Of a DNA stretch of 64,000 nt, positions 24,334 to 50,768 are shown one piece after another. The stretch spans positions 115,639 to 179,638 of the forward strand of contig CAZYBU010000001.1 in assembly GCA_964645775.1 (NCBI GenBank), written 5' to 3'. This stretch comes from an uncultured Leptospirales bacterium (GTDB lineage Bacteria > Spirochaetota > UBA4802 > UBA5550). The notes below the pieces were generated by a model that was not told where the DNA came from, made no database searches, and saw only the letters and a program-made list of their open reading frames with translations. Made by a program: the position numbers and the translations under genes. Numbering within the stretch: the first letter of the stretch is position 1; each line of letters begins with the position of its first letter.

Positions 24334-27300
24334 CCTTTCTGTTAACCGGGCCGTTTTCGCGGCCATGCTCTTTATCGGTCTTACGGTCATCGGAGGGGTC
24401 AGTTATTCCAAGATGGCTATCGACCTCTTTCCGGATATAGAGTACCCGGTAGCCATTATTATCACCGAGTATGAAGACGTGGGGCCCAAGGAGGTGGAGA
24501 GCACTGTTACCCGCCCCCTTGAGGAGGCCGTGGCAGGTATAAATAATATCGAGACCCTCTCGTCCCAATCATTCGAAGGTGTCTCTCTGGTAACCGTTGA
24601 GTTCGCCTGGGGAACCGACATGGGAGCCGGTGTGGCTGACATACGGGAGAAGCTTGATCTTATCAAGCAGGCCCTTCCCAACGAAGTTGGAACACCGATG
24701 GTACTCAAATTCGATGTTTCCATGATGCCAATCCTGATAATAGCGGTTACGGGTGAAAGGAGTATTCAGGATATTCGTAACTATGCCGAAGACCACCTGA
24801 AGAGCCGGTTTGAGCAGGTGGACGGCGTGGCCACGGCCGATGTCATCGGAGGGTACGAGGACGAGGTCAAGGTAGAGCTGGACCGTAACCGCATGGACGC
24901 CTACGGGATATCCATTGATACTATCACGCAGGTGCTTTTCCTTGAAAACATGAATACCGCCGGAGGAGAGGTAAAGACGGATATCATGAAGTACACCCTC
25001 CGTACCCGTGGAGAGTTCCAGACCCTGGATGACATTCGAAACGTTGTTGTGGGAGTTAAAAACAGGACCCCGGTCTATCTGAGTGACATCGGGCGGGTTT
25101 ATATGGGACCCGAAGAGAAGGACAATATAGTGCGGCTAAACGGTCATGACGGTGTTATCATGATACTGCGGAAGCAGTCGGACATGAACACGGTCCAGGT
25201 TGCCCGCAGGGCCGTAAAGAGACTGGATGGAATTCAGGAGAACCTTCCCGCGGGGATCGGGCTGAACGTCTTTTTCAACCAGTCCGAGTACATAGAGAAA
25301 TCGATCAATAACCTGATCCGGACCGCCATCCAGGGAGGTGTAATCGCCATTTTCGTAGTCTTCATTTTTCTTCGAAGCATGCGCGCGGCTTTGATACTGG
25401 GCCTGTCGATACCCCTCTCCATTATTATAACCTTTATCGGTATGTATATCTTTGATCTCTCCCTGAATATGATGTCCCTGGGGGGGTTGGCCCTGGGCGT
25501 GGGGATGCTTATAGACAATTCCATTGTTATTTTGGAGAACGTTTTCCGATTCAGGGAACGAGGGGCTCGTCCCATGGAGGCGGCGAAACTGGGCGCCGAT
25601 GAAATGGCCATGGCCATCACTGCGTCAACATTGACCACTATCTCGGTCTTTCTTCCCTTCCTCTTTACCGAGGGCCTGGCCGGGCAGCTTTTCAAGGACA
25701 TGGCCCTCACCATCGCCTTCTCCCTCCTGGCTTCTCTTCTGGTGGCCCTGACCCTGGTCCCTATGATGACTTCCCGGGTCATAAAGGTGCTCCATCCTGC
25801 CTACGGGGACCGAATCCCGGTGGTGGGACGCCTGTTGGACTGGACGGATAAGGCCTTTCATGAACTGGAATACTACTATGGAAGGGTCATCCGATGGGCC
25901 CTGTCACATCGTAAACGGGTGGTAGCCTATACAGGTATGGCGATAGTTATCGGTCTTGTACTACTTCCCTTTGCCGGAATGGAGTTTATTCCGGAACAGG
26001 ATGAGAACCGGCTTACCTTCTATGTGGAGCTTCCCGTGGGGACCAACCTGGAGAGCACGGAAGAAGTCATGAAGATGGTGGAGAAACGGGTCATGAACGT
26101 CTTAAAGAAGGATGAATACGCGGGACTCAATGTCCGGGCCGGGCAGGGAACCGGGATCTCCGCCGTTTTCAGTGAGACAAAGGACCATATGGGAAAGGTT
26201 GAGATCCGCTTTACGGGTCAGAGCGAACGGGAACGATCCGACAATGAGCTGAGAAAGATTCTGAGATTGGCTCTCCGGGACGTGCCCGGCGCGAAGATAA
26301 ACTTTTCCCGGGGTGGCAGGGAAGGAGGCGGGCTGGGAGGATCTTTTATCACGGTGGAGATCTATGGCTACGACCTGGAGGACGCGGCCTCCTATACCCG
26401 GGAGATATACCGGGCCCTCGAGAAGATCCCCGGTGTCTACGATCTGGAAATATCGAGGGAGGAGGGACTACCTGAGAAACAGATTATTATTAACAGAGAC
26501 AAGGCCTCCAAGATGGGCCTTAATACTACTGTCGTGGCTAATATGGTAAAGGACAGTGTGGCAGGCAAGAAGTCGACTATCTACAGAAAGGAAGGGGAAG
26601 AGTATGACGTGGTCGTCCGTCTGCGGGAAGAGGACAGAAGGACCATACGGGACATACTTTCCCTGAAGATACAGACTCCCACGGGGGACGCCGTTCCCCT
26701 GGGAAACATTATTAACATAAAAACCATAAGTGGACCCACGGCCATTGAACGTAAGAAACAGGAGCGGGTTGTCTTCATAAACTGCAAGGCGGAAGGGAGG
26801 GACCTCAGGAGCGTGGCCCTGGACATGAAAAAGGTCATCAGGAATATTGTTCCACCGAAGAACTTCCATGCCCGGGTGGCCGGCTCCTATGAGGACATGA
26901 ACGAGTCCTTCCGGGATCTTTCGCTCGCTCTTCTTCTGGCAGTGGTCCTGATCTACATTATCATGGCTTCCCAGTTCGAGTCTCTCTGGGCGCCTTTTAT
27001 CATCATGGTGACCATGCCGACCATGATCTTCGGTGTTTCCTTTTTCCTGTTCCTGACGGGAACGACCTTTAATGTTATATCCTTCATGGGGGTGCTGATG
27101 CTTGCCGGCATTGTGGTTAACAACGCCATTGTCTACGTGGACTACACGAACATTCTGCGAGCCCGGGGGAAAAGCCTCCATGAGGCCCTTTCCACGGCCG
27201 GTGAACTGCGATTACGACCCATCCTGATGACCACCTTCACGACCATCTTCGGCCTGGTGCCCATGGCCATAGGACTGGGGGAAGGATCGGAGCTGACCAC

Positions 27301-27442
27301 ACCCCTGGCGCGTGCCGTTATCGGGGGATTGAGCTCATCGTTCATCTTTACTCTGGTCTTTCTTCCGGTAGTCTATTCCCTGCTGGAGCAGATCAAGGAG
27401 AGCATACAGGCCCGGCTCGCCCGTGCAAAGGGAGGATATTGA
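24320..27442 (+). CDS. RND efflux transporter permease (AcrB/HAE1-like, 12 TM)
   Basis: 1040 aa. N-terminal MRLSDLSVNRAVFAAMLF and two large periplasmic loops flanked by TM bundles, as in AcrB. Confidence 0.88.
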   Translation: MRLSDLSVNRAVFAAMLFIGLTVIGGVSYSKMAIDLFPDIEYPVAIIITEYEDVGPKEVESTVTRPLEEAVAGINNIETLSSQSFEGVSLVTVEFAWGTDMGAGVADIREKLDLIKQALPNEVGTPMVLKFDVSMMPILIIAVTGERSIQDIRNYAEDHLKSRFEQVDGVATADVIGGYEDEVKVELDRNRMDAYGISIDTITQVLFLENMNTAGGEVKTDIMKYTLRTRGEFQTLDDIRNVVVGVKNRTPVYLSDIGRVYMGPEEKDNIVRLNGHDGVIMILRKQSDMNTVQVARRAVKRLDGIQENLPAGIGLNVFFNQSEYIEKSINNLIRTAIQGGVIAIFVVFIFLRSMRAALILGLSIPLSIIITFIGMYIFDLSLNMMSLGGLALGVGMLIDNSIVILENVFRFRERGARPMEAAKLGADEMAMAITASTLTTISVFLPFLFTEGLAGQLFKDMALTIAFSLLASLLVALTLVPMMTSRVIKVLHPAYGDRIPVVGRLLDWTDKAFHELEYYYGRVIRWALSHRKRVVAYTGMAIVIGLVLLPFAGMEFIPEQDENRLTFYVELPVGTNLESTEEVMKMVEKRVMNVLKKDEYAGLNVRAGQGTGISAVFSETKDHMGKVEIRFTGQSERERSDNELRKILRLALRDVPGAKINFSRGGREGGGLGGSFITVEIYGYDLEDAASYTREIYRALEKIPGVYDLEISREEGLPEKQIIINRDKASKMGLNTTVVANMVKDSVAGKKSTIYRKEGEEYDVVVRLREEDRRTIRDILSLKIQTPTGDAVPLGNIINIKTISGPTAIERKKQERVVFINCKAEGRDLRSVALDMKKVIRNIVPPKNFHARVAGSYEDMNESFRDLSLALLLAVVLIYIIMASQFESLWAPFIIMVTMPTMIFGVSFFLFLTGTTFNVISFMGVLMLAGIVVNNAIVYVDYTNILRARGKSLHEALSTAGELRLRPILMTTFTTIFGLVPMAIGLGEGSELTTPLARAVIGGLSSSFIFTLVFLPVVYSLLEQIKESIQARLARAKGGY

Positions 27443-27863: not shown

Positions 27864-30800
27864 TTATCTGCGCCCCATGAGTCTCTGGATGTCCATGTGG
27901 ATGAGATAGATCGAAGGTGTGAAGAGCAAAGTTATCACTGTGGCAAAGAGAAGTCCGTAGGCCATAGCCATGACCGTGGGCACGATGGCGTTGGATGTGC
28001 CTCCAATCCCGTAGACAGTCGGTAAAAGACCAAGGACCGTGGTCAAAGTCGTAAGAATAACTGGACGAAGCCGCTGGCGGGCACCGTCAATGATTCTCTT
28101 GATGGGGAATTCACTGTTATCCCGTATCTCACGGTTGATAAAATCGATCATTACCACGTTATCGTTTACCACAACCCCGGAAAGACCGATGATACCGACA
28201 ATGCCCATGAAGGTCAGCGGTATGCCGTGCAGGGTAAAGGCCAGGAGGGCCCCGATTATACTGAAGGGTATGGTTATCATGATAAGGAGCGGCTGGCTGA
28301 CCGACCGGAAAAGAACCGTAAGCATAAAATAAATCATAACAATGGCAATGGAGAAAGCCCTGCCGAGACCTCCCAGGGACTCTTCGGTCTCCTTGGCCTC
28401 TCCTCCCATGGTAATGGATACTTCCGGATGGGCTTGTATGGTCTGGGAGAACCGGGTCAGTACCTTCTCCGCTACCTGTGACGATGTGATCTGCTTCTCG
28501 TCCACGTTTGCTGTTATGGTGATGACACGGTCCCCGTTATAGTGGTTGATGACCGATTTACCTGTCTGCTTTTCAATCCTGGCCACTTCACCGAGACGAA
28601 TAAGACGTCCAAACTGGTTAGGTATGAGAAGGTTCTCGATAAATTTCCTGTCTCTCTTGTATCGTTCGTCAACCTGTACGCGGAAATCGAGGGTGTCCTC
28701 AATGGTCTCGATAGATGTGGCAACACTCCCCTCATAGGCGACTCGGACCGTCTGGGCCACGGTCGCGACATTCAGGCTGAATTGAGCAAGACGTTCATAA
28801 TCAAAGGAGATATTCAACTCCTTCTTGCCCGCTTTCTGGTCATTGGTAACGTCAAAGACACCGGGAAGGGTTTCAAGGTATTCTTCGATATCCTTCTGGA
28901 TTTTGCCGGTCAGGGTCATATCCTTGCCGATGATCTTTATGTTGACAGGTTCCCCTGTTGGCGGACCCAAAGACATCTTCTCGTAGAGAATCCGGGTGAA
29001 AGCTGGATACGTATCAATATTGATTTCTTTGCGGAGATTATGAATGATCCTTTCGGCTGTCCGGTCTCGTTCGGTCCTGGGAACAAGGACAACGATTATC
29101 TGGGACCAGTTTTCATGGGCACCTTTCAGATCACCGGGTCTAACATCGTGTGTCCCCAGGATAATCCGTGTGGATACCATCTCATTCTCCGGTACGACCT
29201 CCCTAAGGTCTTTCTCCACCTTAAGGGAGAGGGTGTCCATGTACTCCTGGCTTGTCCCGTCCGGCGCCTCAAGATTTATATAAATTCTGTCGGAAGAATC
29301 GTCCCAGAAGAGGACAAAACCACGGATGGTCTCCCTGGATATGAACAGAGTTCCCACGAGACCGGCAATTATCAGAAGAACCATGAAATATCTGAATTTC
29401 AGAACTCTTGCAAGGAAACGGCTGTACCATTTTTCCAGTACGGAGAACCATCCTCCTCCTGTTACCTTCAAGGCTTTGCCCTGTTTATTCTTTTTGGACC
29501 CGTGTATGAGATGATTTGGAAGGAGAAAATAGCCCTCAAAGAGAGAAGCAAGAAGGGCCACGGTGATGACGAGGGGAAAGATGAAAATGACCTTGCCCAT
29601 CATCCCTTTGATGGCAAGCATTGGAAGAAAAGCCACGATGGTTGTTGTTATGGATACTGTCACAGGAGCGATAACTCTTCTTACTCCATTTGCAGCGGCA
29701 TCAAGGGGAGGAAGACCCCGCTCCCGTTCCACGAAAATTGCTTCACCGATAACGATACCGTCATCCACCAGTATTCCGAGAATGGTTACAACAGCGGCTA
29801 TGGAAACCAGGTTAAGGGTTATGCCATAGAGGTTCATCCCGATGAGGGTAATCATGAGACTGATCGGTATGGCCACGGCTATCCAGAAGGAAGAACGGAG
29901 ATTCAGAAAAAACAGGAGTACCAGAACAACCAGTATGAAACCTATAGCAGCGTTCCCGAGAACGGCATTGAGCATGGAGGATATGGAATCGGATTGATCG
30001 TTAATGATTTCAGCCTGGAATTCGGAATCTATAAGTGGATCGGTTTCAATAAATGTTCTGACGTTTTCCGCCGTGGTGATGATATCCGCGTTTTCATTTT
30101 TCACGATTTCAAGGATAATGGCCCTTTTGCTGTTAACACGGGTCAAACTTGTTGTTTGTTTAAACCCGTAGGAGACGTCGGCGATATCCTGTATGCGGAT
30201 CTTCTTTCCCTCGAAGTTTGAACGTATTATAACATCCCTGACATCCAGGGGATCTTCAAACTCACCGATGGTGACAATGGTCTGCTCGTTCTGAAGGGAC
30301 TGCAGGGTTCCGCCCGTTGCGCGAACGTTTCTCGCGCGGATACTGTCTACTACGTTATTCAGTGACACGTAGTAGCTGTCCATCTTAGTAAGATCGACAT
30401 CGATATGGACCTCTCTTTCCCGGTATCCGTATTTTCGAACCGAACTGACCCCTTCAATCTTGAGGAGAAGTTCTTCCATTTTATCGGACTGATAGTTTAG
30501 CCTGTATTCGTCAGGCTCTGATTCTCCACGGGACATAACGGCAATGTGCATGATACCCATCATTTTGGGATTGAGGTCCAGAATCTTGAGGGTTTCGACG
30601 TCTTCGGAAATGGATGGAATATTTGAGGTCGTTATGTTCCGGAATACCTCGTCCTTGACAGCCTGCTTGTTCTGGAGGTCGTAGTCGAGGAAAAGAGCGA
30701 TGGTTCCCAGGTTTTCGATGGAATAGGATGAGAAGTAACGGATACCGGATATCTTTCTCAGCTCCTTTTCGATCGGTATAACAGCGTTCATCTCTACGTC

Positions 30801-30974
30801 ACGGGAACTGGCACCTGGATACACTGCATAGATGACCATTTTGTCCATGTCGACCGAAGGGTACATCTCCCGGTTGATGTTTGTGCTGCTCATGATACCG
30901 GCAAAAAAGATAAAGATCATGATCAGGTTGACCAGGAGTGTGTTGCCGGCGAAGAAGCGTAGAATGCGATTCAT
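27864..30974 (-). CDS. second RND efflux transporter permease
   Basis: About 1036 aa from MNRILRFFAGN (the ORF extends to 31001). AcrB-like 12-TM topology. Confidence 0.82.
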   Translation of the reverse strand: MNRILRFFAGNTLLVNLIMIFIFFAGIMSSTNINREMYPSVDMDKMVIYAVYPGASSRDVEMNAVIPIEKELRKISGIRYFSSYSIENLGTIALFLDYDLQNKQAVKDEVFRNITTSNIPSISEDVETLKILDLNPKMMGIMHIAVMSRGESEPDEYRLNYQSDKMEELLLKIEGVSSVRKYGYREREVHIDVDLTKMDSYYVSLNNVVDSIRARNVRATGGTLQSLQNEQTIVTIGEFEDPLDVRDVIIRSNFEGKKIRIQDIADVSYGFKQTTSLTRVNSKRAIILEIVKNENADIITTAENVRTFIETDPLIDSEFQAEIINDQSDSISSMLNAVLGNAAIGFILVVLVLLFFLNLRSSFWIAVAIPISLMITLIGMNLYGITLNLVSIAAVVTILGILVDDGIVIGEAIFVERERGLPPLDAAANGVRRVIAPVTVSITTTIVAFLPMLAIKGMMGKVIFIFPLVITVALLASLFEGYFLLPNHLIHGSKKNKQGKALKVTGGGWFSVLEKWYSRFLARVLKFRYFMVLLIIAGLVGTLFISRETIRGFVLFWDDSSDRIYINLEAPDGTSQEYMDTLSLKVEKDLREVVPENEMVSTRIILGTHDVRPGDLKGAHENWSQIIVVLVPRTERDRTAERIIHNLRKEINIDTYPAFTRILYEKMSLGPPTGEPVNIKIIGKDMTLTGKIQKDIEEYLETLPGVFDVTNDQKAGKKELNISFDYERLAQFSLNVATVAQTVRVAYEGSVATSIETIEDTLDFRVQVDERYKRDRKFIENLLIPNQFGRLIRLGEVARIEKQTGKSVINHYNGDRVITITANVDEKQITSSQVAEKVLTRFSQTIQAHPEVSITMGGEAKETEESLGGLGRAFSIAIVMIYFMLTVLFRSVSQPLLIMITIPFSIIGALLAFTLHGIPLTFMGIVGIIGLSGVVVNDNVVMIDFINREIRDNSEFPIKRIIDGARQRLRPVILTTLTTVLGLLPTVYGIGGTSNAIVPTVMAMAYGLLFATVITLLFTPSIYLIHMDIQRLMGRR

Positions 30975-30975
30975 C

Positions 30976-32472
30976 TCAGTAGACCAGGTCCTGGTAATCA
31001 AAATTAAGATCGATAAGCTTACGTCTGATCTGGAGGATTTCGATCTTCTCCTGGGCTATCCGGTTTTCACTGTCCAGGACGTAAGTGAGATTAAGGCGGG
31101 CCATGTTGTATTTTCTGTATTCGGTCCTTAGTTTGGCTTCGAGGGCCTGAAGGTTCAGCTTCTTGTACCGCAGGCTGCGTTTGATACTTTCAGCCATCTC
31201 GCCGATGTTGGAAAGTCCCTGTTCATACTTCCTCCGGGATATCTCGTACTCATGGTTAAGCTGTTTTTTAAGTATTCTGGATTTCCTGTAGTCGGCCTTG
31301 CCTTCATGGTTGCCGATCGGATAGGTCAGCATCAGGCCGACTTCCAGGCCCACGTTTTCGCTGGATGTAAAAATCTTTCCAAAAGCGGCCCCGGCTTCGG
31401 GGTCCATTCCCTTTTTAGATACCTGGGCCATGAGGCTGAGCTGGGGCAGGGTTTTATTTCTGCCGGCTTTCTCAGCCATGTCAAGGCGCCGCATGGAATA
31501 CTGGTATATTCGCCAGTTGCCTGTTTTTTCGAAGGGGACGGGACTGAATTCCCTGGCCATGGATTTTTCTACGTACTTTTCAAAGGTAGATTCATCTGGA
31601 ATATATTTTTCCGTGTCAATGTAGGGATAGAGGTTAACATTTATTTGTTTAAAAGTCGATTTCAGGGTGTTCAACTGGTCCAGGTAGGTGTAGAGTGCCA
31701 GGTTAGATTTATTTACGTCATCCAGGTCGGCCATTCCCGAACGGTAATGACGCTGAACAGTAGCAACGATCCTTCTCGTGTTTGTAATGGTGCCTTCCAG
31801 TATTTCGATGATCCGCTGGTAAAGGATCCAATCGAAATAGAGTTTCCGGTAGTAGGTCTGAATGGATTTTCTGTACTGTTCCTGCCGGATCTTTTCAATT
31901 TCAGATTCAAACTTCGCGTCCTTTTCCGGGAAACGGTCGAGAAGTCCGAAGGAATTATAGAGGAGAGGTTGAGCCACTCCCACGTAGATTACCGGCTGGT
32001 AAAGGGTTTCATCAAAATGACCGCTCAATGAGGCGGGAGGAGACGTGTCATAATCATAGCTGGAATCCAGAATGCCGAATTTTACACCGGTCTTTAATCG
32101 TGTACCTGTTCTGGCGAAAGTCCGGGAAACACCGGTATCGACCTGAAGGCCGTGCACGCGGGAATGCGCGTTTATCTCTCCATCGATGGCAACCCCCAGG
32201 TCCCCGGAGCCGGAAAGAGACATGGAGGTATTGTCTAAAATATACTTTGTCTCCGATTCAAGGGTCCAATCCTCGATCTTTTTTTCTCTGTTGATCTTGT
32301 TTTCGGCCAGCAACTCTTCCATCTCGCTTTTCTTTAGTTCAGGAAGTTCATTTTTAAGAATCTGGCAATACTGTTCAAAGCTGATGGCTGTTTTATTTTC
32401 AGCGCTGTCCCGGGCCTCAAGGGAGAGGGGACTCACGGCAAGGATTATGAAGAGGAGGGTACACTGTTTCAT
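30976..32472 (-). CDS. TolC-like outer membrane efflux protein
   Basis: Start set at MKQCTLLFIILAVSPLSLEA (signal peptide). Two-repeat coiled-coil-rich architecture. Ends 1 nt before the RND start. Confidence 0.55.
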   Translation of the reverse strand: MKQCTLLFIILAVSPLSLEARDSAENKTAISFEQYCQILKNELPELKKSEMEELLAENKINREKKIEDWTLESETKYILDNTSMSLSGSGDLGVAIDGEINAHSRVHGLQVDTGVSRTFARTGTRLKTGVKFGILDSSYDYDTSPPASLSGHFDETLYQPVIYVGVAQPLLYNSFGLLDRFPEKDAKFESEIEKIRQEQYRKSIQTYYRKLYFDWILYQRIIEILEGTITNTRRIVATVQRHYRSGMADLDDVNKSNLALYTYLDQLNTLKSTFKQINVNLYPYIDTEKYIPDESTFEKYVEKSMAREFSPVPFEKTGNWRIYQYSMRRLDMAEKAGRNKTLPQLSLMAQVSKKGMDPEAGAAFGKIFTSSENVGLEVGLMLTYPIGNHEGKADYRKSRILKKQLNHEYEISRRKYEQGLSNIGEMAESIKRSLRYKKLNLQALEAKLRTEYRKYNMARLNLTYVLDSENRIAQEKIEILQIRRKLIDLNFDYQDLVY

Positions 32473-32629
32473 GGTCTTAGGTATCATGTTATAGGCAACC
32501 CGGGTTTGACTGTATAGGACTCGTTGCAATCTAGGCATAAGACAGGGAAAGTTCAACACATTAATCTTCTATTTAAAGTCATGTGAAAATAGCCTTGCAA
32601 AAAATGACGTTACCCTGTTCCCGTAAGCT

Positions 32630-35032: not shown

Positions 35033-36613
35033 TCAGTCAGCCTGTTTGCTGTCGGGAAGCAGACGCAGGAGGACCATGCCCGCAAGGAAGGCGGGACCGA
35101 AAATCAGGGAAAGGGACGTTCCCGCCTGGAAAAGGGCCTCCCGGCCAAGGACCAGTGTGAAGAGGCCGGTGGCTTCTCCGGGAATCATGGTGGTAAAGAG
35201 ACCACTGCCGAGATGCAGGAAGATCCAGATCCCCCAGAGGGCCAGGAGAAGGAACAGAGAAGGGTAGAGGAGTATTCTTCCCAGGGCTTGTAGTCTTCGT
35301 CTCAGGGGCGCCCGGTTCATTAAAAGGATTAATAGATACAGAAGGGAAAGTCCCAGAGGAATGTACAGGGCATAAGGTACGTACTGAAAAAGTCTCATGG
35401 CTATGACCAGTTTTTCGGCCGGTTCCCCTTTGAGATTTCTGGTTATTGTGATCTTGCCATGACGAATACTTATCCCCTGCTTTTTCATGATGTTTCGGCC
35501 TATGGCTTCGATCAGTCCCGTTTCTGAAAGACGGAAGACGGCTGTCAGCAGGTTTTTGTTCTGGATACCTTCTGTGGATCGAACCTTCTCCACGAACATA
35601 TCCGCCAGGAGATGCTTCTTTTCTCCTGAATCGCTCCTGACATTAAGGTTGATGGTAATTACTGGAAGGTTGATCTCCTTTGAGTGAAGGATGGTGTATC
35701 CTTTCCGAATCCGGACATCCTTGATGGAACCAATGCGGACCTGTCGTTCGTAGGTGGTGAGGAAAGAAAAGAGCTTTTCGAGCTCAGTGCGAATCTGGCT
35801 GGCGATGACTTTTTCTCTTAGGATATGGTTAAGGGTCGGGGTTAATATATTCAGGTCAGAGTGAAGGGATCCAAGCAGGGAAGAACTCTCTTGTTTCGCT
35901 ATACGTTCCGCCCTCTTTTCGCTCCTTTCAAGTCTCCTGCGGGCTTGATCCAGTTCATCCTTCTTTTTTTTGAGTCTCACTTTCAAAGAAGCGATATCAT
36001 CTTTCCGTTCGTTTCGGATCGTTCGAATAGACATCAGAAGATCTTCCAGTCTCTGAATTTCATTCTTTTTAAACTTCTGGAACGCTTCCTTGTCAGTATA
36101 GAGGTCTTGCATTTCGGACCACTTCAGGTCCCTGGTATCCTCAAGAGATCTCTTTGCTGTCTGGAATTCGGACTCCCTGCCCATTTCCTGGAGACGCTGA
36201 TGGATCGATTCATATTCTTCTTTTATCTGGTCATACCTCTGTTGAACTTCATCGAGGTTTACCTTCTCATCGATCTCCTGTTCGATTTTCCGGTTGGTTT
36301 TCAGGGTTGCTATCTCTACGTAGGTGCCGATAAGGTCTGCTTCGGAAAGAGTTTTTGTATAGAAATCGGGTGATAATAAAAGATTGAGAAAAATGGCTAA
36401 GACCACTGTGACGGGTATAAAGAAAAAGGCCAGAATATTGGATAGATGAAAAAATATTGACGGTCTGCCTTCAGGTGAACGTGACATGGCTGCCTCCAGT
36501 TTCTCTGAAGGAAAATAATCCGGTTGAAGTATTTCAAGCTTTTTTTCAAATGCTCGTAAACCATGTACAGCGGGTAATAATACTTTCCTGAAGATGATTT
36601 TACGTGTAAGCAA
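35033..36613 (-). CDS. membrane protein with long coiled-coil region, unknown function
   Basis: 526 aa. N-terminal TM, about 200 aa of charged heptad-like sequence (EEYESIHQRLQE..., KKKKDELDQARRRLERSEKRAERIAKQE), C-terminal multi-TM segment. Confidence 0.5.
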   Translation of the reverse strand: MLTRKIIFRKVLLPAVHGLRAFEKKLEILQPDYFPSEKLEAAMSRSPEGRPSIFFHLSNILAFFFIPVTVVLAIFLNLLLSPDFYTKTLSEADLIGTYVEIATLKTNRKIEQEIDEKVNLDEVQQRYDQIKEEYESIHQRLQEMGRESEFQTAKRSLEDTRDLKWSEMQDLYTDKEAFQKFKKNEIQRLEDLLMSIRTIRNERKDDIASLKVRLKKKKDELDQARRRLERSEKRAERIAKQESSSLLGSLHSDLNILTPTLNHILREKVIASQIRTELEKLFSFLTTYERQVRIGSIKDVRIRKGYTILHSKEINLPVITINLNVRSDSGEKKHLLADMFVEKVRSTEGIQNKNLLTAVFRLSETGLIEAIGRNIMKKQGISIRHGKITITRNLKGEPAEKLVIAMRLFQYVPYALYIPLGLSLLYLLILLMNRAPLRRRLQALGRILLYPSLFLLLALWGIWIFLHLGSGLFTTMIPGEATGLFTLVLGREALFQAGTSLSLIFGPAFLAGMVLLRLLPDSKQAD

Positions 36614-41414: not shown

Positions 41415-41888
41415 ATGTCACATTATGAAGGAGGGCACGGATTGAAAATTGCCATAGGTTCTGATCACGCGGGCTATTCTTTAAAAGAAGAGATCAAGAG
41501 ACATCTGGTCAGTCACGATATTATGGATATGGGAACTCATTCAACGGAATCCTGCGATTATCCCGACTTTATCGCGCCTGTGGGAGAAACGGTTCGTGAT
41601 GGTGATGCCGATCTGGGTATAGTTATCTGTGGTTCCGGCATAGGGGCATCACTTGTGGCTAACAAGGTCCACGGAATACGGGCCGCCCTCTGTTTTAACG
41701 GTTACATGGCCGAGATGTCCAGGAAGCATAATAACGCTAACGTTCTTGCCCTGGGGGCCCGTGTTATCGGCCTGGATATCGCCATAAACATTGTGGATAC
41801 GTGGCTTGCAACCGGATTCGAAGGCGGCAGGCACCAGAGAAGAGTTGATAAGATTCATGAAGTGGAAACGAGGCAGTGCCAGTACTGA
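41415..41888 (+). CDS. rpiB: ribose-5-phosphate isomerase B
   Basis: 157 aa. KIAIGSDHAGYSLKEEI...GIVICGSGIGASLVANKVHGIRAAL is typical RpiB/LacAB. Confidence 0.85.
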   Translation: MSHYEGGHGLKIAIGSDHAGYSLKEEIKRHLVSHDIMDMGTHSTESCDYPDFIAPVGETVRDGDADLGIVICGSGIGASLVANKVHGIRAALCFNGYMAEMSRKHNNANVLALGARVIGLDIAINIVDTWLATGFEGGRHQRRVDKIHEVETRQCQY

Positions 41889-43588
41889 GATACATTCCTG
41901 ATCGCCTTCTTCCCCTGGCGGTCTGTTTTATACTCCTTCCTCTTTCACAGGGGGTGGGTGATTCCGGATATCTTGTTGTCTTCCCCAAAATTTCCGGTGA
42001 CCATCTACAAAATGCCCGTGTGGTCGATATGCCGGATGGTTCAACAGGTTACACGGTACGCGATCTCTCTTACGGTAACAGAAAAGGAGAGATAAAACAG
42101 GAGCTGGTTCTCTCTTTCAATCGATCGCCCGACAAAATGGGAAGAGACGATACTCGAAGGTATGACATCCGGAAGGCTTCTTTCCAGCTGGAAAATAGTG
42201 AAGCCAGTTTCGGATCTTCCTCGGCTCTTTTTTACAAGAGTGAACACGGTATAGAGATAGCCACGGAGAGGAGTCAATGGCTTGGTAGTTGTGGAGATCT
42301 CGGTTCGTTTACCTTCGAGTTCCGATTGAGGCCCACGGCTTTGAAGGATGGGAGCGTCCTTTTTTCCAGGGTGGGACGGCTTTCCGGTTCACCTATCGGG
42401 TTTGAGGTCGTGATCCTGGGACGGAGGATTGTAAGCCGGTTCCACAATATGTTTCAGACTGAGAACGGTAACAGGGTGAACATCGCTCTTACCCGGGGAC
42501 CCCAACTTGAAAGAGACCGCTGGTATCATTACCTGGTAACCTTTGATCGTCAGAGTGGTCGGATGGTCAGTTATCTTAACAACAGGGAGAATGAGACACT
42601 CTATATTACGGAAACCGGAAGACCGGGTGAAGGAGTATACACGCCTCTCTTCACCGCTCCCGGTGAGAAGGAAGATACCTGTGTCGATATGCCAGAAGTG
42701 CGTATCGGTAACCGTTATGCAGGATACCTCGATGAAATTCGGTTGAGCAGGTATGACCGGGTGGAGCTCTCCCGCCGTAGTGATATTGCCTGGAAAAGAT
42801 ACAGGGATACCGAGAAAGCCGGTAGAAACCCTTATAATTATGAGGGTATTGTTACAAGCCCTGTGTACAGTTTTAAGGGCACAGGAACCAGAATTACTCA
42901 TTTCCAATGGAATGAGAAAAAGAAAGACCATACTTTTATATGGATGGAATTCCGTATAGCTGACAGGCGATTCACCCGCGATGACCGTGATCTTAAATGG
43001 TACCGTATTAAAAACGGGGAGAGGACAATTTACCTGAAAAAAACAACGGAAGACCTCTATCTGAGGGGAAAGTATTATCAGTGGAGGGCTCACCTGGTGC
43101 CCTCGCCGGACGGCAGCCACGCTCCCGTAATATATACTATTTCATTGAGATATCAGCCCGATCTAAAACCGAAACCGCCCATGTTTCTTGAGACAACTGT
43201 AACAGGCGACCGAAGCGTTACTCTTAAATGGCTGAAAAGCTACGAAGATGATATAGCAGGATACAGGATTTACTATGGAACCGCATCCGGCAAATATGAT
43301 GGTATCATTGAGAGAGTAAAGGGTAAGCCCATTACCAACGATTTTTCCAGCGGGGATTATATTGAGCTGACCATAACAAATGATCTGGTTGAAGAGAACA
43401 GGGAAGCGGATACAAGGGAATTGCTTGATTATCCCAGGATCAGGAACAGGGTTCTCTACTTCTTTGCTGTAAGTGCCTATGATACCTACAGGACAGGAAC
43501 TCCCTATAATCATGAATCCGACCTCTCTGAAGAGGTAACCGGTCGACCCCATCTCGGATCAGAGATTACTCCTTCAAAACCTCATTGA
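41876..43588 (+). CDS. secreted protein with LamG/ConA-like jelly-roll and C-terminal fibronectin type III domain
   Basis: 570 aa. Signal peptide. Region ...DRWYHYLVTFDRQSGRMVSYLNNRE... is LamG-like. ...DRSVTLKWLKSYEDDIAGYRIYYGTASG... is FN3. Confidence 0.6.
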   Translation: MPVLRYIPDRLLPLAVCFILLPLSQGVGDSGYLVVFPKISGDHLQNARVVDMPDGSTGYTVRDLSYGNRKGEIKQELVLSFNRSPDKMGRDDTRRYDIRKASFQLENSEASFGSSSALFYKSEHGIEIATERSQWLGSCGDLGSFTFEFRLRPTALKDGSVLFSRVGRLSGSPIGFEVVILGRRIVSRFHNMFQTENGNRVNIALTRGPQLERDRWYHYLVTFDRQSGRMVSYLNNRENETLYITETGRPGEGVYTPLFTAPGEKEDTCVDMPEVRIGNRYAGYLDEIRLSRYDRVELSRRSDIAWKRYRDTEKAGRNPYNYEGIVTSPVYSFKGTGTRITHFQWNEKKKDHTFIWMEFRIADRRFTRDDRDLKWYRIKNGERTIYLKKTTEDLYLRGKYYQWRAHLVPSPDGSHAPVIYTISLRYQPDLKPKPPMFLETTVTGDRSVTLKWLKSYEDDIAGYRIYYGTASGKYDGIIERVKGKPITNDFSSGDYIELTITNDLVEENREADTRELLDYPRIRNRVLYFFAVSAYDTYRTGTPYNHESDLSEEVTGRPHLGSEITPSKPH

Positions 43589-45579: not shown

Positions 45580-46326
45580 ATGGTACATGTCGTGATCCCC
45601 ACAACTGATGGCTACGAACTCGATGGTACTCTCTACGGAGATACAGGAGGAGAGACACCGGCCATTGTCTACTGTCATGGTATGCTCTCGAGCAAAGATG
45701 GATATAAGGTTCGTCATCTCGGTCCCTTTCTGGCCGACAAAGGGTATCCTCTTCTCGCCTTTACCTTTTCAGGCGCTACCCCATCCGGGAATATCTTTCA
45801 TCATCTTTCGATCCTGAATGAAGTGAAGGAACTGGCCAGTGTTGCAGGATGGATGCGTTCCAGAGGCTATGATAAAATTCATCTTGTGGGATCCAGTCTC
45901 GGAGGTCTGATTGTTCTTATTTACGCTTCCGGATGGGATCCCGCTCTCTGCGCTCTTACAACCGTGGCTACACCTGTTGACCTCAAGGAAGCCTTTACGG
46001 CCTGGAAGGTTCCACCTGCAGATGAGCTTGACCCGGAGAGTTTTACGAACATAGAGGGGACATCTATCACAAACCGATTTTTCCTGGAAGGATATGAGCT
46101 TGATGTTTCCTCTTACCTGAAACGCATTGATCTTCCACTTCAGGTAATACACGGATCTGAAGATGAGACCGTCCCCTTCATCAACGCCTCCCGTTTGATC
46201 TCTATGGTACCCGATGAGGCGAAACAGGTTACTCTTGATGGAGGTGACCATTCACTGACTCGGAGTGAATGGCTGAACATGATACAGGAAAGGATATTTG
46301 AATGGACTTCCTTCTGCAAAAGCTGA
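45580..46326 (+). CDS. alpha/beta hydrolase (dienelactone-hydrolase/esterase-like)
   Basis: 248 aa. GxSxG elbow HLVGSSLGG. Probable catalytic Asp and His downstream (IHGSEDE..., GGDHS). Confidence 0.72.
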   Translation: MVHVVIPTTDGYELDGTLYGDTGGETPAIVYCHGMLSSKDGYKVRHLGPFLADKGYPLLAFTFSGATPSGNIFHHLSILNEVKELASVAGWMRSRGYDKIHLVGSSLGGLIVLIYASGWDPALCALTTVATPVDLKEAFTAWKVPPADELDPESFTNIEGTSITNRFFLEGYELDVSSYLKRIDLPLQVIHGSEDETVPFINASRLISMVPDEAKQVTLDGGDHSLTRSEWLNMIQERIFEWTSFCKS

Positions 46327-46727
46327 ACTACGCGGGAATCTATGCCGCCCTTGCCGGTCTCTATCTTTTGGGAACCGGAATAATGGAAATTACTCGTCCT
46401 CTCACGGTTTCGGGTCTCTGGGAAAGGTTTATCCAATCACGGCTGTTTCCCGCTTACGGGGTTCTGCTTACACTTCTGGCTCTACCGTTGACCCTTTACA
46501 GGGGATATTTTTCCTGGTTTATTCTTATCATGGGAGCGCTTGCCGCCATTACCGGTCCTGTTATACTTCTTTTCCCCGGCTTTATTCAGAAGAACATGAT
46601 GGCTATGACTCGAAACGAGGAAGGAGAGGATCTGCTTCCGGGAGTCGTACGCATGGACGGTATTCTTCGTATCGTTCTGGGACTCATCTTCCTTACGGGA
46701 GTAAGCCTGACACTTTCACTTTCCTGA
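46302..46727 (+). CDS. small membrane protein (4 TM)
   Basis: 141 aa, hydrophobic. Overlaps the previous gene end by 25 nt. Confidence 0.45.
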   Translation: MDFLLQKLNYAGIYAALAGLYLLGTGIMEITRPLTVSGLWERFIQSRLFPAYGVLLTLLALPLTLYRGYFSWFILIMGALAAITGPVILLFPGFIQKNMMAMTRNEEGEDLLPGVVRMDGILRIVLGLIFLTGVSLTLSLS

Positions 46728-46821
46728 GAATCCAAAAATATTTGACACCTCTCTTCCCGATCCTTCATGATAGACTTAGGCTAAGCCTGCCCGCTAAAAC
46801 GCGTTAAACCCTGGAGAACCG

Positions 46822-49800
46822 ATGAATTATATCAATGTCAGTCACAGCCGCAGATACAGCGGAACGATTAGCGGTAGATCAAGTGAAATCCAAGATAGAT
46901 TTCCCGCCTCAAACATCCTTGAAGAGGATGGATTCTGGTCCACCCAGGTCCGGGAATCACCGATCTCCGAATATGTCATAATTGATTATGGAGAGGATGT
47001 GTTCATCGATTATGTAGAGATACATCCTGTAACCGAACAGCCTTCTGGTTTCCCTTCGTATTTCCATTTGGAGTGCAGTGATGACACTTCCGTCTGGAGG
47101 ATACTGCTCACCGAGAAAGAGTATAATACCGATGGGACCCCATACCGAGTAGATCTGCCCCTTACGCGTACGAGGTACGTTAAATTTGCAGCACCTCGTT
47201 CATGTGAAATGGAAAAAAAATTTCAGATCCGGGTAGCCCGTATCGAGGCCGGAATCTCCGGAATACTGGAACTGGATGCCACGAGCAGCGAGCAGGAACA
47301 TGATGTTAAGAACCTCCTTTCCGATAACAACCGGGAGACGTGGCTTTCAAGTCCAAAAAGCAATCCCTCACGGGAGACTCTGAACATAGACCTGGGAGAC
47401 GTTTACGGAGTAAACCGGATTATCCTGGAATCATCCCTGAAGGGTTTCCCCGCCAATATCACCATCGAAACAAGCGCGGGTGAAGATGTCTGGACAATTC
47501 TCCATGATGAGAAAGGATTCCTGGCTGAATCTTTCAAAAAGTATTACTGGGAAGAGGGTGTTATCCAGGCCCGTTTTATCCGCGTGGAAATGTCCACTAC
47601 GCCCTTCTTCGAGAACCGGCATCAGGTTCAGCTCGCCTCCCTCGAGATCTGTGCCGCTCACCTGGAAGAAAACCATTCACATAATATTGGAGAGCTTACA
47701 ACGCACGCTTCAGTCTTTATGCCAGGAATGGTAAGACTCGCTCGTGATGGTGAAGAAACAATGGGGACAGCCGTTCAGGCCAATGACCGTCGTCTTAGGG
47801 ACGCTACGGAACTTTTCAAGGGGATTGTTCGTTTCGCTGAAGAAGGCGAGTCTGAACCGCTCGTAGCTCTCCAGTCGTCAGATCCGAGGGTACAGCCGGC
47901 CACAGGGGAACAATACGGCATAGTGCGTCTGGCTTTTGACAGGGAGACCAAACCGGGTAGTGTGATCCAGGGAAGTGATTCGCGGCTTCAGCACGCTACA
48001 CCGGATAATTTTGGTATTGTCCGAATTTGTCCCAATGGCGAATACATGGAAAGTGGAGTCATTACCGGTAATGACTGCCGTCTTCAGAAGGCAACGACAG
48101 ACGAGCCAGGAATAAGCCGTATTGCCAAAAATGGAGAGTCTTCCCATGATGCCGTTGTTAGCTCCACGGACAGAAGACTTTCTCACGCGGGGACCACATC
48201 TTATGGAATTGTTATACTTGCGGGAGACGGGGAGGAGAACGAGGGAAAGGTTATTCAGGCTAATGATCGTCGATTAAAAGATGCAACAACCCTGGCGCCC
48301 GGTATTGTTGAGCTTGCGGAGGACGGGGAGGAGAGCCCGGGAACCGTTGTTCAGGGTAATGACCGCCGTCTTCGGGACGCCACCACGGAATCAAAGGGGA
48401 TCGTTGAGCTTGCGGAGGACGGGGAGGAGAAGAACGGAACCGCTGTCCAGGGTAATGACCGCCGTCTTCGGAACGCCACCACGGAATCAAAGGGGATTGT
48501 GGAACTGGCAGAGAACGGAGAGAAGAATCCGGGGGTTGCCGTTCAGGGTAACGATCGCCGGCTGGAAGATGCTACCATAATTTCTACCGGCATTGTTCGT
48601 CTGGCTTCGGATGGAGAAGAGGCTGAAGGTTCCGCTGTTCAGGGCAATGACCGTCGACTTCGGGAGGCAACGACAATTTCTACCGGCATTGTTCGTCTGG
48701 CTTCGGATGGAGAAGAGGCTGAAGGTTCCGCTGTTCAGGGCAATGACCGTCGTCTTCGGGACGCTACCACGGAATCGAAGGGCATTGTAGAGCTGGCCGG
48801 GGATGGGGAGGATAAGCCGGGTACCGCTGTACAGGGTAACGACCATCGTCTCAAGGAAGCGACGACAGTCTCTACAGGTATTGTTCGTCTGGCCCTGAAC
48901 GGTGAGGAGACGGAAGGGGCGGCTGTTCAGGGTAACGACAGTCGTCTTCGGGACGCCACCACGGAATCGAAGGGCATTGTAGAGCTGGCCGGGGATGGAG
49001 AGGATAAACCGGGTACCGCTGTCCAGGGCAGCGATCGTCGTCTCCGTGACTCCAGCACGACATCAAAAGGTATAGTAGAGCTGGCGGAGGATGGGGAAAG
49101 CGTCCCTGGAGTCGTTGTTCAGGGTAATGATTCCAGACTACGGATAGGAACAGAAGAATATCCCGGGATTCTGCGTGTCGCTCCTGCCGGGGTCTCCCGG
49201 GAAGGACTTGTGGTGCAATCCAATGATCCACGGCTTGTGGACTCGAGAGAACCCCTTCCCCATGAACATGAGTACGCTCCTCTGCATCATCGACTGGAAG
49301 ATCATGAGGGTATCCTGGCGGTGGATGACAGCAGGGCCATGAAATTTATGGATGTTAATCCTCCTTTGTCCGATTCATCCGTGATTTACGGTAAAAACAA
49401 ATCGGAGGGAACGGGAGCTATCGGTATAACCGGAACGGTTCGTCCCGGGAATGGCAAGAAATCTACCGCTTACGGGGTAGTGGGCGATAGTTTGCATATC
49501 GGGGTCCGCGGACAGGCAACAGGAGATTCCGATTCCCGGGGATGCGGAGTGGCCGGCCTCGCCAGGAGTGGTCATGGAGGAGCTTTCCTGAGCGAGCATG
49601 GGTATTCACTCATGGTCGATGGATATGGCCGGGAAACAAACAGTCTGGATGAAACAATTAATCTTAAAGGGGATGGGAAAGCCCTTTATGTGGATGGTGC
49701 GTCATTTTTTAAAGGTCAGGCTACTTTTCAGTTCAGCAGGGATGAAGCGACCGGAAACCTGGTAGAGTTCTTTGAGGTGGATGACGAAGAGTATATTTCC

Positions 49801-50154
49801 CCTGGTGATATCCTGGTTGTAAGCGACCGGGGAAAATCGATGCTGTCGAAATCACGTATCACATATAACCGGTCTGTTATAGGAGTTGTTTCTGACACTC
49901 CGGCTGTTATTCTTAATGGTGCACCTGAGGGGAAGGTATATGCCGTTGCCCTCGCCGGTAAGGTGATGTGTAAAGTGGATGCCCGGAACAAACCCATACG
50001 GCCTGGAGATTTCATTGTCACATCGGACACTCCCGGCTGCGGGATGAGCGGAAAAATCGATTCTTTTGATAAAATAGGCACTGTCCTGGGCAAGGCCCTG
50101 GATGGGCTGGAGGAGGGGCTGGGGACCATCCCTCTTTTTATTCAGCCTATGTAA
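46822..50154 (+). CDS. giant repeat protein with 2x discoidin (F5/8 type C)-like domains, 16 tandem 32-aa repeats and a unique C-terminal domain
   Basis: 1110 aa. No signal peptide. The region from aa 30 to about 290 shows two galactose-binding-like modules. 16 x G[IV]V[ER]LAxDGE...VQGNDRRLRDAT repeats. 300-aa Gly-rich C-terminal domain. Confidence 0.8.
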   Translation: MNYINVSHSRRYSGTISGRSSEIQDRFPASNILEEDGFWSTQVRESPISEYVIIDYGEDVFIDYVEIHPVTEQPSGFPSYFHLECSDDTSVWRILLTEKEYNTDGTPYRVDLPLTRTRYVKFAAPRSCEMEKKFQIRVARIEAGISGILELDATSSEQEHDVKNLLSDNNRETWLSSPKSNPSRETLNIDLGDVYGVNRIILESSLKGFPANITIETSAGEDVWTILHDEKGFLAESFKKYYWEEGVIQARFIRVEMSTTPFFENRHQVQLASLEICAAHLEENHSHNIGELTTHASVFMPGMVRLARDGEETMGTAVQANDRRLRDATELFKGIVRFAEEGESEPLVALQSSDPRVQPATGEQYGIVRLAFDRETKPGSVIQGSDSRLQHATPDNFGIVRICPNGEYMESGVITGNDCRLQKATTDEPGISRIAKNGESSHDAVVSSTDRRLSHAGTTSYGIVILAGDGEENEGKVIQANDRRLKDATTLAPGIVELAEDGEESPGTVVQGNDRRLRDATTESKGIVELAEDGEEKNGTAVQGNDRRLRNATTESKGIVELAENGEKNPGVAVQGNDRRLEDATIISTGIVRLASDGEEAEGSAVQGNDRRLREATTISTGIVRLASDGEEAEGSAVQGNDRRLRDATTESKGIVELAGDGEDKPGTAVQGNDHRLKEATTVSTGIVRLALNGEETEGAAVQGNDSRLRDATTESKGIVELAGDGEDKPGTAVQGSDRRLRDSSTTSKGIVELAEDGESVPGVVVQGNDSRLRIGTEEYPGILRVAPAGVSREGLVVQSNDPRLVDSREPLPHEHEYAPLHHRLEDHEGILAVDDSRAMKFMDVNPPLSDSSVIYGKNKSEGTGAIGITGTVRPGNGKKSTAYGVVGDSLHIGVRGQATGDSDSRGCGVAGLARSGHGGAFLSEHGYSLMVDGYGRETNSLDETINLKGDGKALYVDGASFFKGQATFQFSRDEATGNLVEFFEVDDEEYISPGDILVVSDRGKSMLSKSRITYNRSVIGVVSDTPAVILNGAPEGKVYAVALAGKVMCKVDARNKPIRPGDFIVTSDTPGCGMSGKIDSFDKIGTVLGKALDGLEEGLGTIPLFIQPM
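47725..49260 (+). repeat. in-frame tandem array of 16 x 96-bp units
   Basis: Exact period of 96 nt. Units 10/11 (48589-48780) and 12/14 are nearly identical at the nucleotide level. Confidence 0.85.
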
Positions 50155-50156
50155 TG

Positions 50157-50768
50157 TCAGGGTGAGAGGTTATTCAGGACCTCTATCTCATCCCGGTTGA
50201 AGACTTTGTCCTGGTATTCATTCAACTCTTTTGATATTTCCTGGCTGATATAGGTTATTCTACGGGAATAAGGATTATCTTCATATTGGTTAACCCAGAG
50301 GATGATGATGGTCTTTTCGGATGTCCATGCTATGGACCCCTGCATATCTTTAATGGATTCCATGTTAGCGGGACCAAATTTTTCTTCCAGTTTACTTTTT
50401 ACGTCTTTGTAATCAAGATAGGGGAATGAGAGAGCTACATAAAAAAGGCGGCTTTCCCCTTTAGATTCCTCATCTTCAGCAGAGGGATCCCCGGCAGGAG
50501 TCTCTTTTTCCGTTGATGGGAGCTTTGATGGATCAAGATATAAAAAGCCATAATAATACGTAATGGAGCCATCTCTGGATATGATGACCCGTTTATCATC
50601 CGTATATACAATTTTTCCCTTGATAGTATCCTTCGCGTCCTTCATGGATGTCCCCCATGTCATCTCCCCGTATCCTTCAGGAAGGGCCTTTCGGTTTTCC
50701 TGAGAAAAGATGACAGAAGCGACTAAAAGGACAGAAAGGATGATCGTTATTTGTTTCATTCTTCTCAC
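50157..50768 (-). CDS. secreted protein, unknown function
   Basis: 203 aa. Signal peptide MKQITIILSVLLVASVIFS. Confidence 0.5.
   Translation of the reverse strand: MRRMKQITIILSVLLVASVIFSQENRKALPEGYGEMTWGTSMKDAKDTIKGKIVYTDDKRVIISRDGSITYYYGFLYLDPSKLPSTEKETPAGDPSAEDEESKGESRLFYVALSFPYLDYKDVKSKLEEKFGPANMESIKDMQGSIAWTSEKTIIILWVNQYEDNPYSRRITYISQEISKELNEYQDKVFNRDEIEVLNNLSP

Follow-up and report, generated by a model that had tools for sequence, protein, structure and literature searches.

A conserved chromosomal gene of uncultured Spirochaetota encodes a predicted fibre with discoidin heads, a 16-unit phage-type shaft and a phi29 gp12-type C-terminal cap

We analysed a stretch of 64,000 nucleotides (nt) from an uncultured Leptospirales bacterium (contig CAZYBU010000001.1 of assembly GCA_964645775.1; hereafter the window), and here describe a gene in it that encodes a protein of 1110 amino acids (aa). 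The open reading frame (ORF) of 1110 codons is uninterrupted, and an N-terminal extension of the protein is excluded because its ATG is the first start codon available after an upstream in-frame stop. A protein identical to it is encoded on an NCBI contig of 264 kb. From the N- to the C-terminus, the protein consists of a pair of discoidin domains, a short linker, a shaft of 16 repeats, a segment with an HxH motif, a Gly-rich neck and a beta-tulip domain (Table 1). Every part is known from phage fibres; it is their combination in a conserved cellular gene that is new. We regard it as probable that the product is a homotrimeric fibre built from phage tail-fibre modules, and that its gene, by now inherited vertically, belongs to the core genes of an uncultured lineage of Spirochaetota.

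Table 1. Features of the fibre gene and its immediate surroundings (positions in the window; AF2, AlphaFold2; pLDDT, predicted local distance difference test)
Feature	Positions	Strand	Basis
Complete ORF, 1110 aa (discoidin / fibre-repeat / G2-type chaperone)	46822..50154	+	translation; orthologues
Discoidin (F5/8 type C, CBM32-like) domain 1, aa 1-146	46822..47259	+	PF00754 aa 20-126; AF2 pLDDT 80-94
Discoidin domain 2, aa 147-284	47260..47673	+	PF00754 aa 153-259; AF2 pLDDT 82-93
Linker, aa 285-301, with conserved H285 x H287	47674..47724	+	AF2 pLDDT <50 over aa 285-304
Shaft, 16 repeats of 32 aa, aa 302-813	47725..49260	+	exact spacing; PHROG 910; gp12/gp34 profile matches; AF2
HxH segment, aa 814-830 (H814-E-H816-E-Y818 ... 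H823 ... H828), putative axial metal site	49261..49311	+	conservation
Gly-rich neck, aa 836-977 (G-x-x-G type repeats)	49327..49752	+	many invariant Gly residues
Equivalent of the phi29 gp12 autocleavage site, G978-N979-L-V-E982 on S691/D692-F-A-E695	49753..49767	+	hhalign
C-terminal beta-tulip, aa 978-1110, phi29 gp12-type (Peptidase G2) intramolecular chaperone / trimerisation cap	49753..50151	+	AF2; PF11962 (below cut-off)
Promoter-like site TTGACA, 18 nt, CATGAT	46742..46771	+	10/12 matches; 50 nt 5' of start codon
Ribosome-binding site GGAG	46813-46816	+	sequence
Secreted 203-aa protein, function unassigned	50157..50768	-	signal peptide visible; convergent to fibre gene

The two discoidin modules, which an initial annotation of this DNA had proposed, were readily recovered by the Pfam profile F5_F8_type_C (PF00754). 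The profile matched the whole protein over two separate stretches (E = 4.9e-20, 72.4 bits, with a cut-off of 28.2), and the second stretch stayed above the cut-off when it was scanned alone (E = 4.5e-10, 40.2 bits). AF2 modelled aa 1-284 as a beta-sandwich jelly-roll fold (pLDDT 80-94), and a Foldseek comparison of the full model with the PDB retrieved tandem CBM32 modules, neuropilin b1b2 and C1C2 of coagulation factors V/VIII (E ~1e-13). Discoidin matches dominated this comparison, which was uninformative on the shaft. As putative lectins, the discoidin heads would bind a glycan or polysaccharide ligand. In the AF2 model the lectin begins at residue ~4, and no baseplate-adaptor domain lies N-terminal to it. 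We also noticed that the two histidines of the linker (H285 and H287, encoded at 47674..47682) constitute a second H-x-H motif, invariant in one alignment of the family (A1) and conserved at 90% or more in another (A4); they could hold a further axial metal site at the junction of head and shaft.

The units of the shaft start at aa 302, 334 and so on to aa 782, exactly 16 in number and with zero insertions or deletions, and this spacing is far beyond chance. Their consensus is A-T-x4-G-[IV]-V-x-L-A-x-D-G-E-x3-G-x-A-V-Q-G-N-D-x-R-L-x-D. At the nucleotide level, Tandem Repeats Finder reported a 96-nt period over positions 48304-49130, plus super-periods of 192 and 288 nt at 72-83% identity. Units 1-5 and 16 bear position-specific signatures that are kept across orthologues; units 6-15 are homogenised within the protein, with identities reaching 90% (units 10 and 11). 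The super-periods and the 90% identity of units 10 and 11 point to recent duplication or gene conversion in the central array, though the number of units is conserved, as 81 of 120 orthologues possess an unbroken chain of 16 units and a further 20 possess 15.

That these repeats are of the phage tail-fibre type, as the initial annotation had it, was supported by several comparisons. PHROG 910 ('tail collar fiber protein') matched the repeats at E = 4e-16. Of the six best PDB hits to a profile of two consecutive units, four were T4-type gp12 (E = 0.012, 0.14 and 0.7) or a gp34-like long-fibre subunit (E = 0.062), and hhalign placed the double unit on aa 748-801 of T4 gp34 (E = 0.043, probability 1.2%). 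The 'mixed alpha-beta fibrous domain' of gp34 includes crystallised trimeric repeats at 744-776 and 780-812, each with a Gly at the start of its outward strand and, on the three-fold axis, a short [ST]-P-x-x-L helix (PMC5537660). In the AF2 monomer of the spirochaete protein, DSSP assigned a strand (GIVxLA), a second strand (AVQ) and a helix of 3-4 residues (D.RL) in most of the 16 units, with a few units missing one of these elements and pLDDT values of 55-73 over the shaft. The similarities are weak singly and mutually consistent, and we consider that the shaft repeats resemble the trimeric alpha/beta repeats of T4 gp12 and gp34, with D.RL apparently forming the short axial helix at the end of each unit.

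The comparison with T4 gp12 and gp34 (PDB 5IV5, 5NXF) can be extended to details. Both appear to have units of ~32-36 aa that begin with A-T-x4-G-[IV]-[IV]-x-L-A, and the order of elements is shared: an outward strand opened by a Gly, then another short strand, then a short helix at the end of the unit; an HxH motif downstream of the repeats is found in T4 gp12 and gp37 and in the spirochaete protein alike. The period of the spirochaete shaft is exactly 32 aa, compared with the ~33-47 aa taken as typical of the T4 class, and the closing helix reads [NS]-D-x-R-L, with [ST]-P-x-x-L in T4. The T4 proteins have 4-7 irregular units with variable loops, whereas the spirochaete shaft is composed of 16 units of strictly 32 aa, and T4 fibres depend on the separate chaperones gp57 and gp38, whereas the spirochaete protein holds its putative chaperone in cis.

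Directly after unit 16 comes the HxH segment. In an alignment of 121 sequences, its residues H814, H816, H823 and H828 never vary (Y818 is likewise invariant). Octahedral Fe/Zn sites built from HxH motifs are found on the axis of T4 gp37, T4 gp12, the P2 spike and R-pyocin fibres (PMC6116203), and by analogy H814-x-H816 would probably bind a metal ion at the spirochaete protein's three-fold axis. The Gly-rich neck that follows was modelled with a pLDDT below 50 when 25 sequences were supplied (AF2 of aa 800-1110) and of 59-89 with 121 sequences, and it displayed little regular secondary structure in the monomer even with the deeper alignment. We presume that the neck adopts an intertwined beta-structure in the trimer. 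It co-occurs with the beta-tulip in thousands of relatives.

The C-terminal domain had been regarded as novel in the initial annotation, a view that the present data do not support. Residues 978-1110 were modelled confidently (pLDDT 83-92), and their fold corresponds to that of the C-terminal autochaperone of the phi29 pre-neck appendage, gp12. The Pfam family Peptidase_G2 (PF11962), a model derived from the phi29 gp12 autochaperone, gave sub-threshold scores for the full protein (14.6 bits) and the C-terminal slice (17.2 bits), and sub-threshold matches to it were found in 14 of 25 orthologues (best E = 1e-4). In a Foldseek comparison with viral models, the hits comprised 'Preneck appendage protein barrel' together with numerous Caudovirales proteins that are uncharacterised. 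A sequence search of the PDB with the whole protein gave noise only, and a profile of the C-terminal 311 aa gave one chance match only. Searched against 1.84 billion cluster representatives, the profile of the last 311 aa matched 19,001 clusters (10,549 of them at E <= 1e-10), nearly always at the extreme C-terminus of proteins of 250-3000 aa. Among 60 carriers sampled, some match Peptidase_G2, several match 'tail fiber' PHROGs, and others a 'pre-neck appendage' PHROG or the N-terminal domain of the Bdellovibrio MAT fibres. The domain is thus a widespread module of phage fibres, a Gly-rich neck plus a beta-tulip chaperone, which is not new and is poorly covered by Pfam.

Some features of the wider set of module carriers may be mentioned here. 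Only 7 of the 60 sampled carriers have any Pfam match to Peptidase_G2. Most members of the family (relatives P0139-P0269) are proteins of 250-500 aa, which have no signal peptide and bear repeats of the type G-x-G-V-x-G-x-S. A minority of the neck-plus-beta-tulip relatives combine a signal peptide with the Bdellovibrio MAT N-terminal domain.

The initial annotation had also entertained a tail-spike-type chaperone, as it likened the ND.RL element to the SD.RLK start of tail-spike chaperone domains, which is the start of Peptidase S74 (endosialidase / T5 pb1 type) chaperones. This hunch was right in spirit, given the C-terminal cap, while it named the wrong element and the wrong family: ND.RL recurs 16 times in the shaft, and Pfam searches with the whole protein and its parts returned no PF13884/S74 match at E <= 1. 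We accordingly rejected Peptidase S74 as a candidate for the C-terminus, the fold of which is a beta-tulip and not S74. We also compared the spirochaete domain with the beta-tulip proteins that decorate or cement capsids (the base of phi29 gp8.5, the HFTV1 capsid stabilisation protein, TW1 gp56 and the lambda gpD class; PMC7602432). In gp8.5 the tulip is N-terminal and binds the capsid, whereas the spirochaete tulip is C-terminal and has no capsid genes nearby, and its sequence signal favours the G2 chaperone branch.

Gp12 of the Bacillus phage phi29, a tail spike (PDB 3GQ7, 3GQH, 3SUC), can be aligned in register with the spirochaete C-terminus at the segment where gp12 is cleaved, its mature form (gp12*) ending at residue 691 (PMC6542822). 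The cleavage columns are strongly conserved in 131 diverse relatives, with Asp in 127/133 and Glu in 143/144. In the spirochaete family the Glu is near-invariant (Glu982, corresponding to E695), whereas Asp is entirely absent from position 979, which is Asn in 53, Gly in 38 and Ser in 6 of the 97 scored orthologues. The cap is probably uncleaved and retained in the spirochaete protein, because the cleavage-site Asp is replaced by Asn, Gly or Ser in 97/97 scored orthologues. The loss of Asp as a sign of lost autocleavage is at present a lead, backed here by the conservation pattern. The most economical reading would be that autocleavage was lost and the cap kept, in the manner of the C-terminal domain of the P22 tailspike, which is non-cleaved (PMC3357383). 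Besides the cleavage Asp and the sub-threshold PF11962 score, gp12 and the spirochaete protein differ in that the body of gp12 is a pectate-lyase-like beta-helix enzyme and that of the spirochaete protein is a repeat shaft with N-terminal lectins, and in that gp12 is a virion gene and the spirochaete gene a chromosomal core gene; neither protein has a signal peptide.

Alternatively, the protein could be a conventional self-cleaving G2-type fibre that, like phi29 gp12, sheds its C-terminal ~130 aa once trimerised, so that the neck would become exposed as the functional tip. The homology and fold of the C-terminal domain would fit such a fibre, as would the near-invariant Glu982, and Asn can drive peptide-bond cleavage in other autoprocessing proteins. 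We nevertheless regard this alternative as improbable, as (i) the mixture of Asn, Gly and Ser at position 979 leaves no conserved chemistry at a site occupied by Asp in nearly all other relatives, (ii) a sister subfamily with ~8 repeats has lost the cleavage-site Glu as well, and (iii) the beta-tulip is among the best-conserved parts of the protein (61% identity to orthologues), which is unexpected for a part that is discarded. The sister subfamily (P0128, P0131, P0136-P0138 and P0150; e.g., L085 1856..4375) consists of proteins of 838-867 aa with discoidin domains, and its genes lie in a chromosomal context beside MTHFR.

The initial annotation had described the protein as an orphan, which turned out to be incorrect. 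A search of 5.8 billion proteins recovered at least 258 homologous clusters, of which the best 120 have, with few exceptions, a length of 1020-1130 aa and share 45-55% identity with the spirochaete protein over the full length; the named relatives among these 120 are all from metagenome-assembled genomes (MAGs) of Spirochaetota, on contigs of up to 4.9 Mb. Relatives were found in at least 225 species in a GTDB scan with one genome per species, and the 80 of the 225 that were listed are all Spirochaetota or unclassified ('uncultured bacterium') MAGs, some of them labelled Leptospirales or Leptospiraceae by their submitters. The identity of the fibre protein to its orthologues (~52%) is close to that of dtd (49%), with trxA at 65%. 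As the initial annotation had stated, the gene is surrounded by housekeeping genes, its neighbours being cca, a lipoprotein gene, an alpha/beta hydrolase gene, a gene for a 141-aa membrane protein, a convergent gene for a secreted 203-aa protein, trxA and dtd; the remainder of the window encodes efflux pumps, metabolic enzymes and signalling proteins. The search for homologues and their genomic context that the initial annotation had called for placed the Spirochaetota orthologues in a syntenic chromosomal block of the fibre gene, the convergent 203-aa gene, trxA and dtd. The best-conserved neighbour is the 203-aa gene, which lies next to the fibre gene in convergent orientation in 57 of the 70 orthologous loci with enough downstream sequence (median gap 69 nt, median identity 43%), and trxA and dtd follow in ~30 loci.

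Prophages and injection systems had likewise been judged absent from the surroundings, and our scans agree. No phage family was matched by the 30 window ORFs scanned against Pfam, and no phage structural gene was present at three homologous loci with Pfam-annotated gene calls (L001-L003); the 80 genome loci were checked solely for the neighbour genes of the window. Relatives were absent from IMG/VR, which was scanned with the family alignment, and a tblastn search of 50,697 GenBank phage records with the repeats and the C-terminus, in which the low-complexity filter may have masked the repeats, gave no hit. The GC content of the gene (52%, versus 50% for the window) is ordinary and carries no signature of horizontal transfer. 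The behaviour of the gene is that of a core gene passed on vertically within an uncultured Spirochaetota lineage, and not that of prophage cargo.

These data also bear on the possibility that the protein is the tail or head fibre of a domesticated phage-like particle, such as a tailocin, a gene-transfer agent (GTA) or an extracellular contractile injection system (eCIS), the main cluster of which lies elsewhere in the genome. Assembly of such a fibre in the cytoplasm and its release by lysis would account for the absence of a signal peptide. Phage counterparts exist for every module of the protein, some GTA fibre genes sit apart from the main cluster, and the closest beta-tulip relatives include capsid-binding decoration proteins, so that the C-terminus could dock on a capsid-like lattice. 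Nevertheless, no phage structural gene was seen among the 30 ORFs or at the three loci, the family is absent from IMG/VR and the GenBank phages, and the syntenic position of the gene is fixed. Moreover, the fibre evolves about as slowly as dtd, unlike a receptor binder engaged in an arms race, and a lectin that starts at residue ~4 leaves no baseplate-adaptor domain. We therefore consider a particle-borne fibre unlikely, albeit less so than the self-cleaving fibre described above.

The absence of a signal peptide, another claim of the initial annotation, is clear. The maximum of 10-residue hydropathy within the first 45 aa is -0.22, compared with 3.2-3.4 for two neighbouring secreted proteins. 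This raises the possibility that the protein is an intracellular structural element, a spacer or cytoskeletal component whose discoidin domains bind the inner membrane leaflet or a cytoplasmic polysaccharide. The lack of an export signal from all 117 orthologues and the core-gene behaviour would agree with it, and the tandem discoidin pair resembles the membrane-binding C1C2 of coagulation factors V/VIII. However, the discoidin domains are the fastest-evolving part of the protein, a better fit to a variable external ligand, direct evidence for an intracellular role is nil, and the characterised relatives of shaft and cap are all extracellular virion or surface fibres (PMC10769870). An intracellular role appears to us to have little probability, and we favour an extracellular location of the fibre.

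The remaining features of the locus can be described briefly. Promoter-like sites in the region are not enriched (five found versus 4.7 expected), and it is by its position that the site upstream of the fibre gene is suggestive as a promoter. The stop codons of the fibre gene and the 203-aa gene are only 2 nt apart, tail-to-tail. The 203-aa secreted protein has no match in Pfam, NCBIfam or the PDB, and it is either a functional partner of the fibre or a mere member of a stable core block. On the 5' side the genes vary between loci, the trio of lipoprotein, hydrolase and transmembrane (TM) protein being kept in only ~20 of 66. Directly upstream of the fibre gene, a 169-aa ORF that starts with TTG (46298..46807) is probably spurious; it is overlapped in another frame by the 141-aa ORF with an ATG start (46302..46727, forward strand), which encodes a multi-TM membrane protein and matches a 133-aa gene called upstream in L001. 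We considered this multi-TM protein as a holin-like exporter or operon partner of the fibre and rejected it as a general partner, as only 18 of 68 loci have a small multi-TM ORF immediately upstream.

Further away in the window, two genes upstream of cca (41876..43588, forward strand), lies the gene for a protein of 570 aa that contains a Laminin_G_3 (concanavalin-A-like lectin) domain. It is a second lectin-type protein in the vicinity, and in other genomes it is not kept beside the fibre gene. RND (AcrB-type) efflux transporters are encoded at two positions ~15-20 kb upstream (24320..27442 on the forward strand and 27864..32559 on the reverse strand), one of them adjoined by a TolC-like outer-membrane factor; no type I secretion ABC or membrane-fusion protein (MFP) genes able to export the fibre were seen in the scan of the window ORFs. 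A 526-aa ORF (35033..36613, reverse strand) has no Pfam domain and has weak coiled-coil-type NCBIfam matches (TraP IncI1, E = 1.9e-5; SMC).

Several points weigh against a homotrimeric, exported fibre with a retained cap. The trimeric state is a prediction, and AF2 covered the monomer, with a confidence of just 55-73 in the shaft. The sequence links between the repeats and gp12/gp34 are individually weak (E = 0.012-0.7 for the PDB profile hits; hhalign probability 1.2%), and the Peptidase_G2 scores of 14.6-17.2 bits fall below the gathering score of 25. The reading of the lost Asp depends on a catalytic role of D692 and E695 in gp12, which are reportedly the residues implicated in its autocleavage (Xiang et al. 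2009; MEROPS family G2). Even with Asp replaced, Asn979 could in principle permit cleavage through a succinimide. Finally, 117/117 orthologues lack a signal peptide, a TM segment and any known secretion tag. A surface or extracellular role therefore requires an export route that has yet to be described, and release of the fibre would be Sec-independent.

Taking the above together, we still consider the trimeric fibre the best account of the protein, and its anatomy and assembly may be pictured as follows. With two discoidin/CBM32-type lectins per chain, the trimer would bear six sites for glycan binding at one end; these would be carried on a rigid shaft of 16 alpha/beta repeats of the T4 gp12/gp34 type, followed by an axial HxH metal site, an intertwined Gly-rich neck and the C-terminal beta-tulip homologous to the phi29 gp12 autochaperone. 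During folding, the three C-terminal beta-tulips would associate first and fix the register of the chains, and the neck, the HxH site and the 16-unit shaft would then zip toward the N-terminus; like that of phage fibres, this folding would be cytoplasmic. The beta-tulip would stay attached as a conserved base or cap. At the distal end, the discoidin heads, which evolve fast, would bind polysaccharide, with the protein acting as an adhesin or a spacer.

The polarity of the fibre deserves comment. In phage fibres, attachment or assembly takes place at the conserved end, and receptor binding falls to the variable one. The discoidin domains share 34-35% identity with those of orthologues, the shaft 54-66% and the beta-tulip 61%, and the variable end of the spirochaete fibre is by sequence the N-terminal lectin pair. 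The closest cellular analogue is provided by the MAT (mosaic adhesive trimer) fibres of Bdellovibrio bacteriovorus (PMC10769870; NCBIfam NF053851), which are likewise chromosomal, phage-derived and used by the bacterium itself, and which share a chaperone-type C-terminus and a trimeric state, the latter being a prediction for the spirochaete protein; moreover, 3 of the 60 sampled carriers of the spirochaete-type C-terminal module also bear the MAT N-terminal domain. All 21 of 21 MATs begin with a signal peptide followed by a conserved N-terminal domain of ~130 aa, predicted to lie next to the surface of the predator, and their C-terminal tips are variable, with S74 chaperone ends in 13/21 (PMC10769870). 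By contrast, the spirochaete fibre possesses neither a signal peptide nor a match to the NCBIfam MAT_N, and its polarity is opposite, with variable lectins at the N-terminus and the conserved end at the C-terminus. It is attractive to speculate, albeit tentatively, that an anciently captured tail fibre has become a core structure with reversed polarity, a non-cleaving permanent base and a diversifying lectin tip, and that it is deployed without a known secretion signal.

The reuse of phage receptor-binding fibres by bacteria is only now being recognised, with the Bdellovibrio MAT fibres and tailocins as examples, and the present family would add a case from another phylum, vertically inherited in at least 225 species. 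Aside from its distribution, the family offers a natural experiment, a G2-type autochaperone minus its cleavage-site Asp, and its strictly regular shaft of 16 x 32 aa is a possible model or scaffold for designed fibres. With ~19,000 clusters at 50% identity, the family of the neck-plus-beta-tulip module is very large, and Pfam mostly overlooks it, which matters for the annotation of phage and bacterial fibres. If a captured fibre of reversed polarity is genuinely what these spirochaetes possess, it would imply either an undescribed Sec-independent route of export or release, or an intracellular use of a virion-type fibre. The way in which a 120-kDa fibre without a signal is deployed could thus reveal an unusual export route in spirochaetes.

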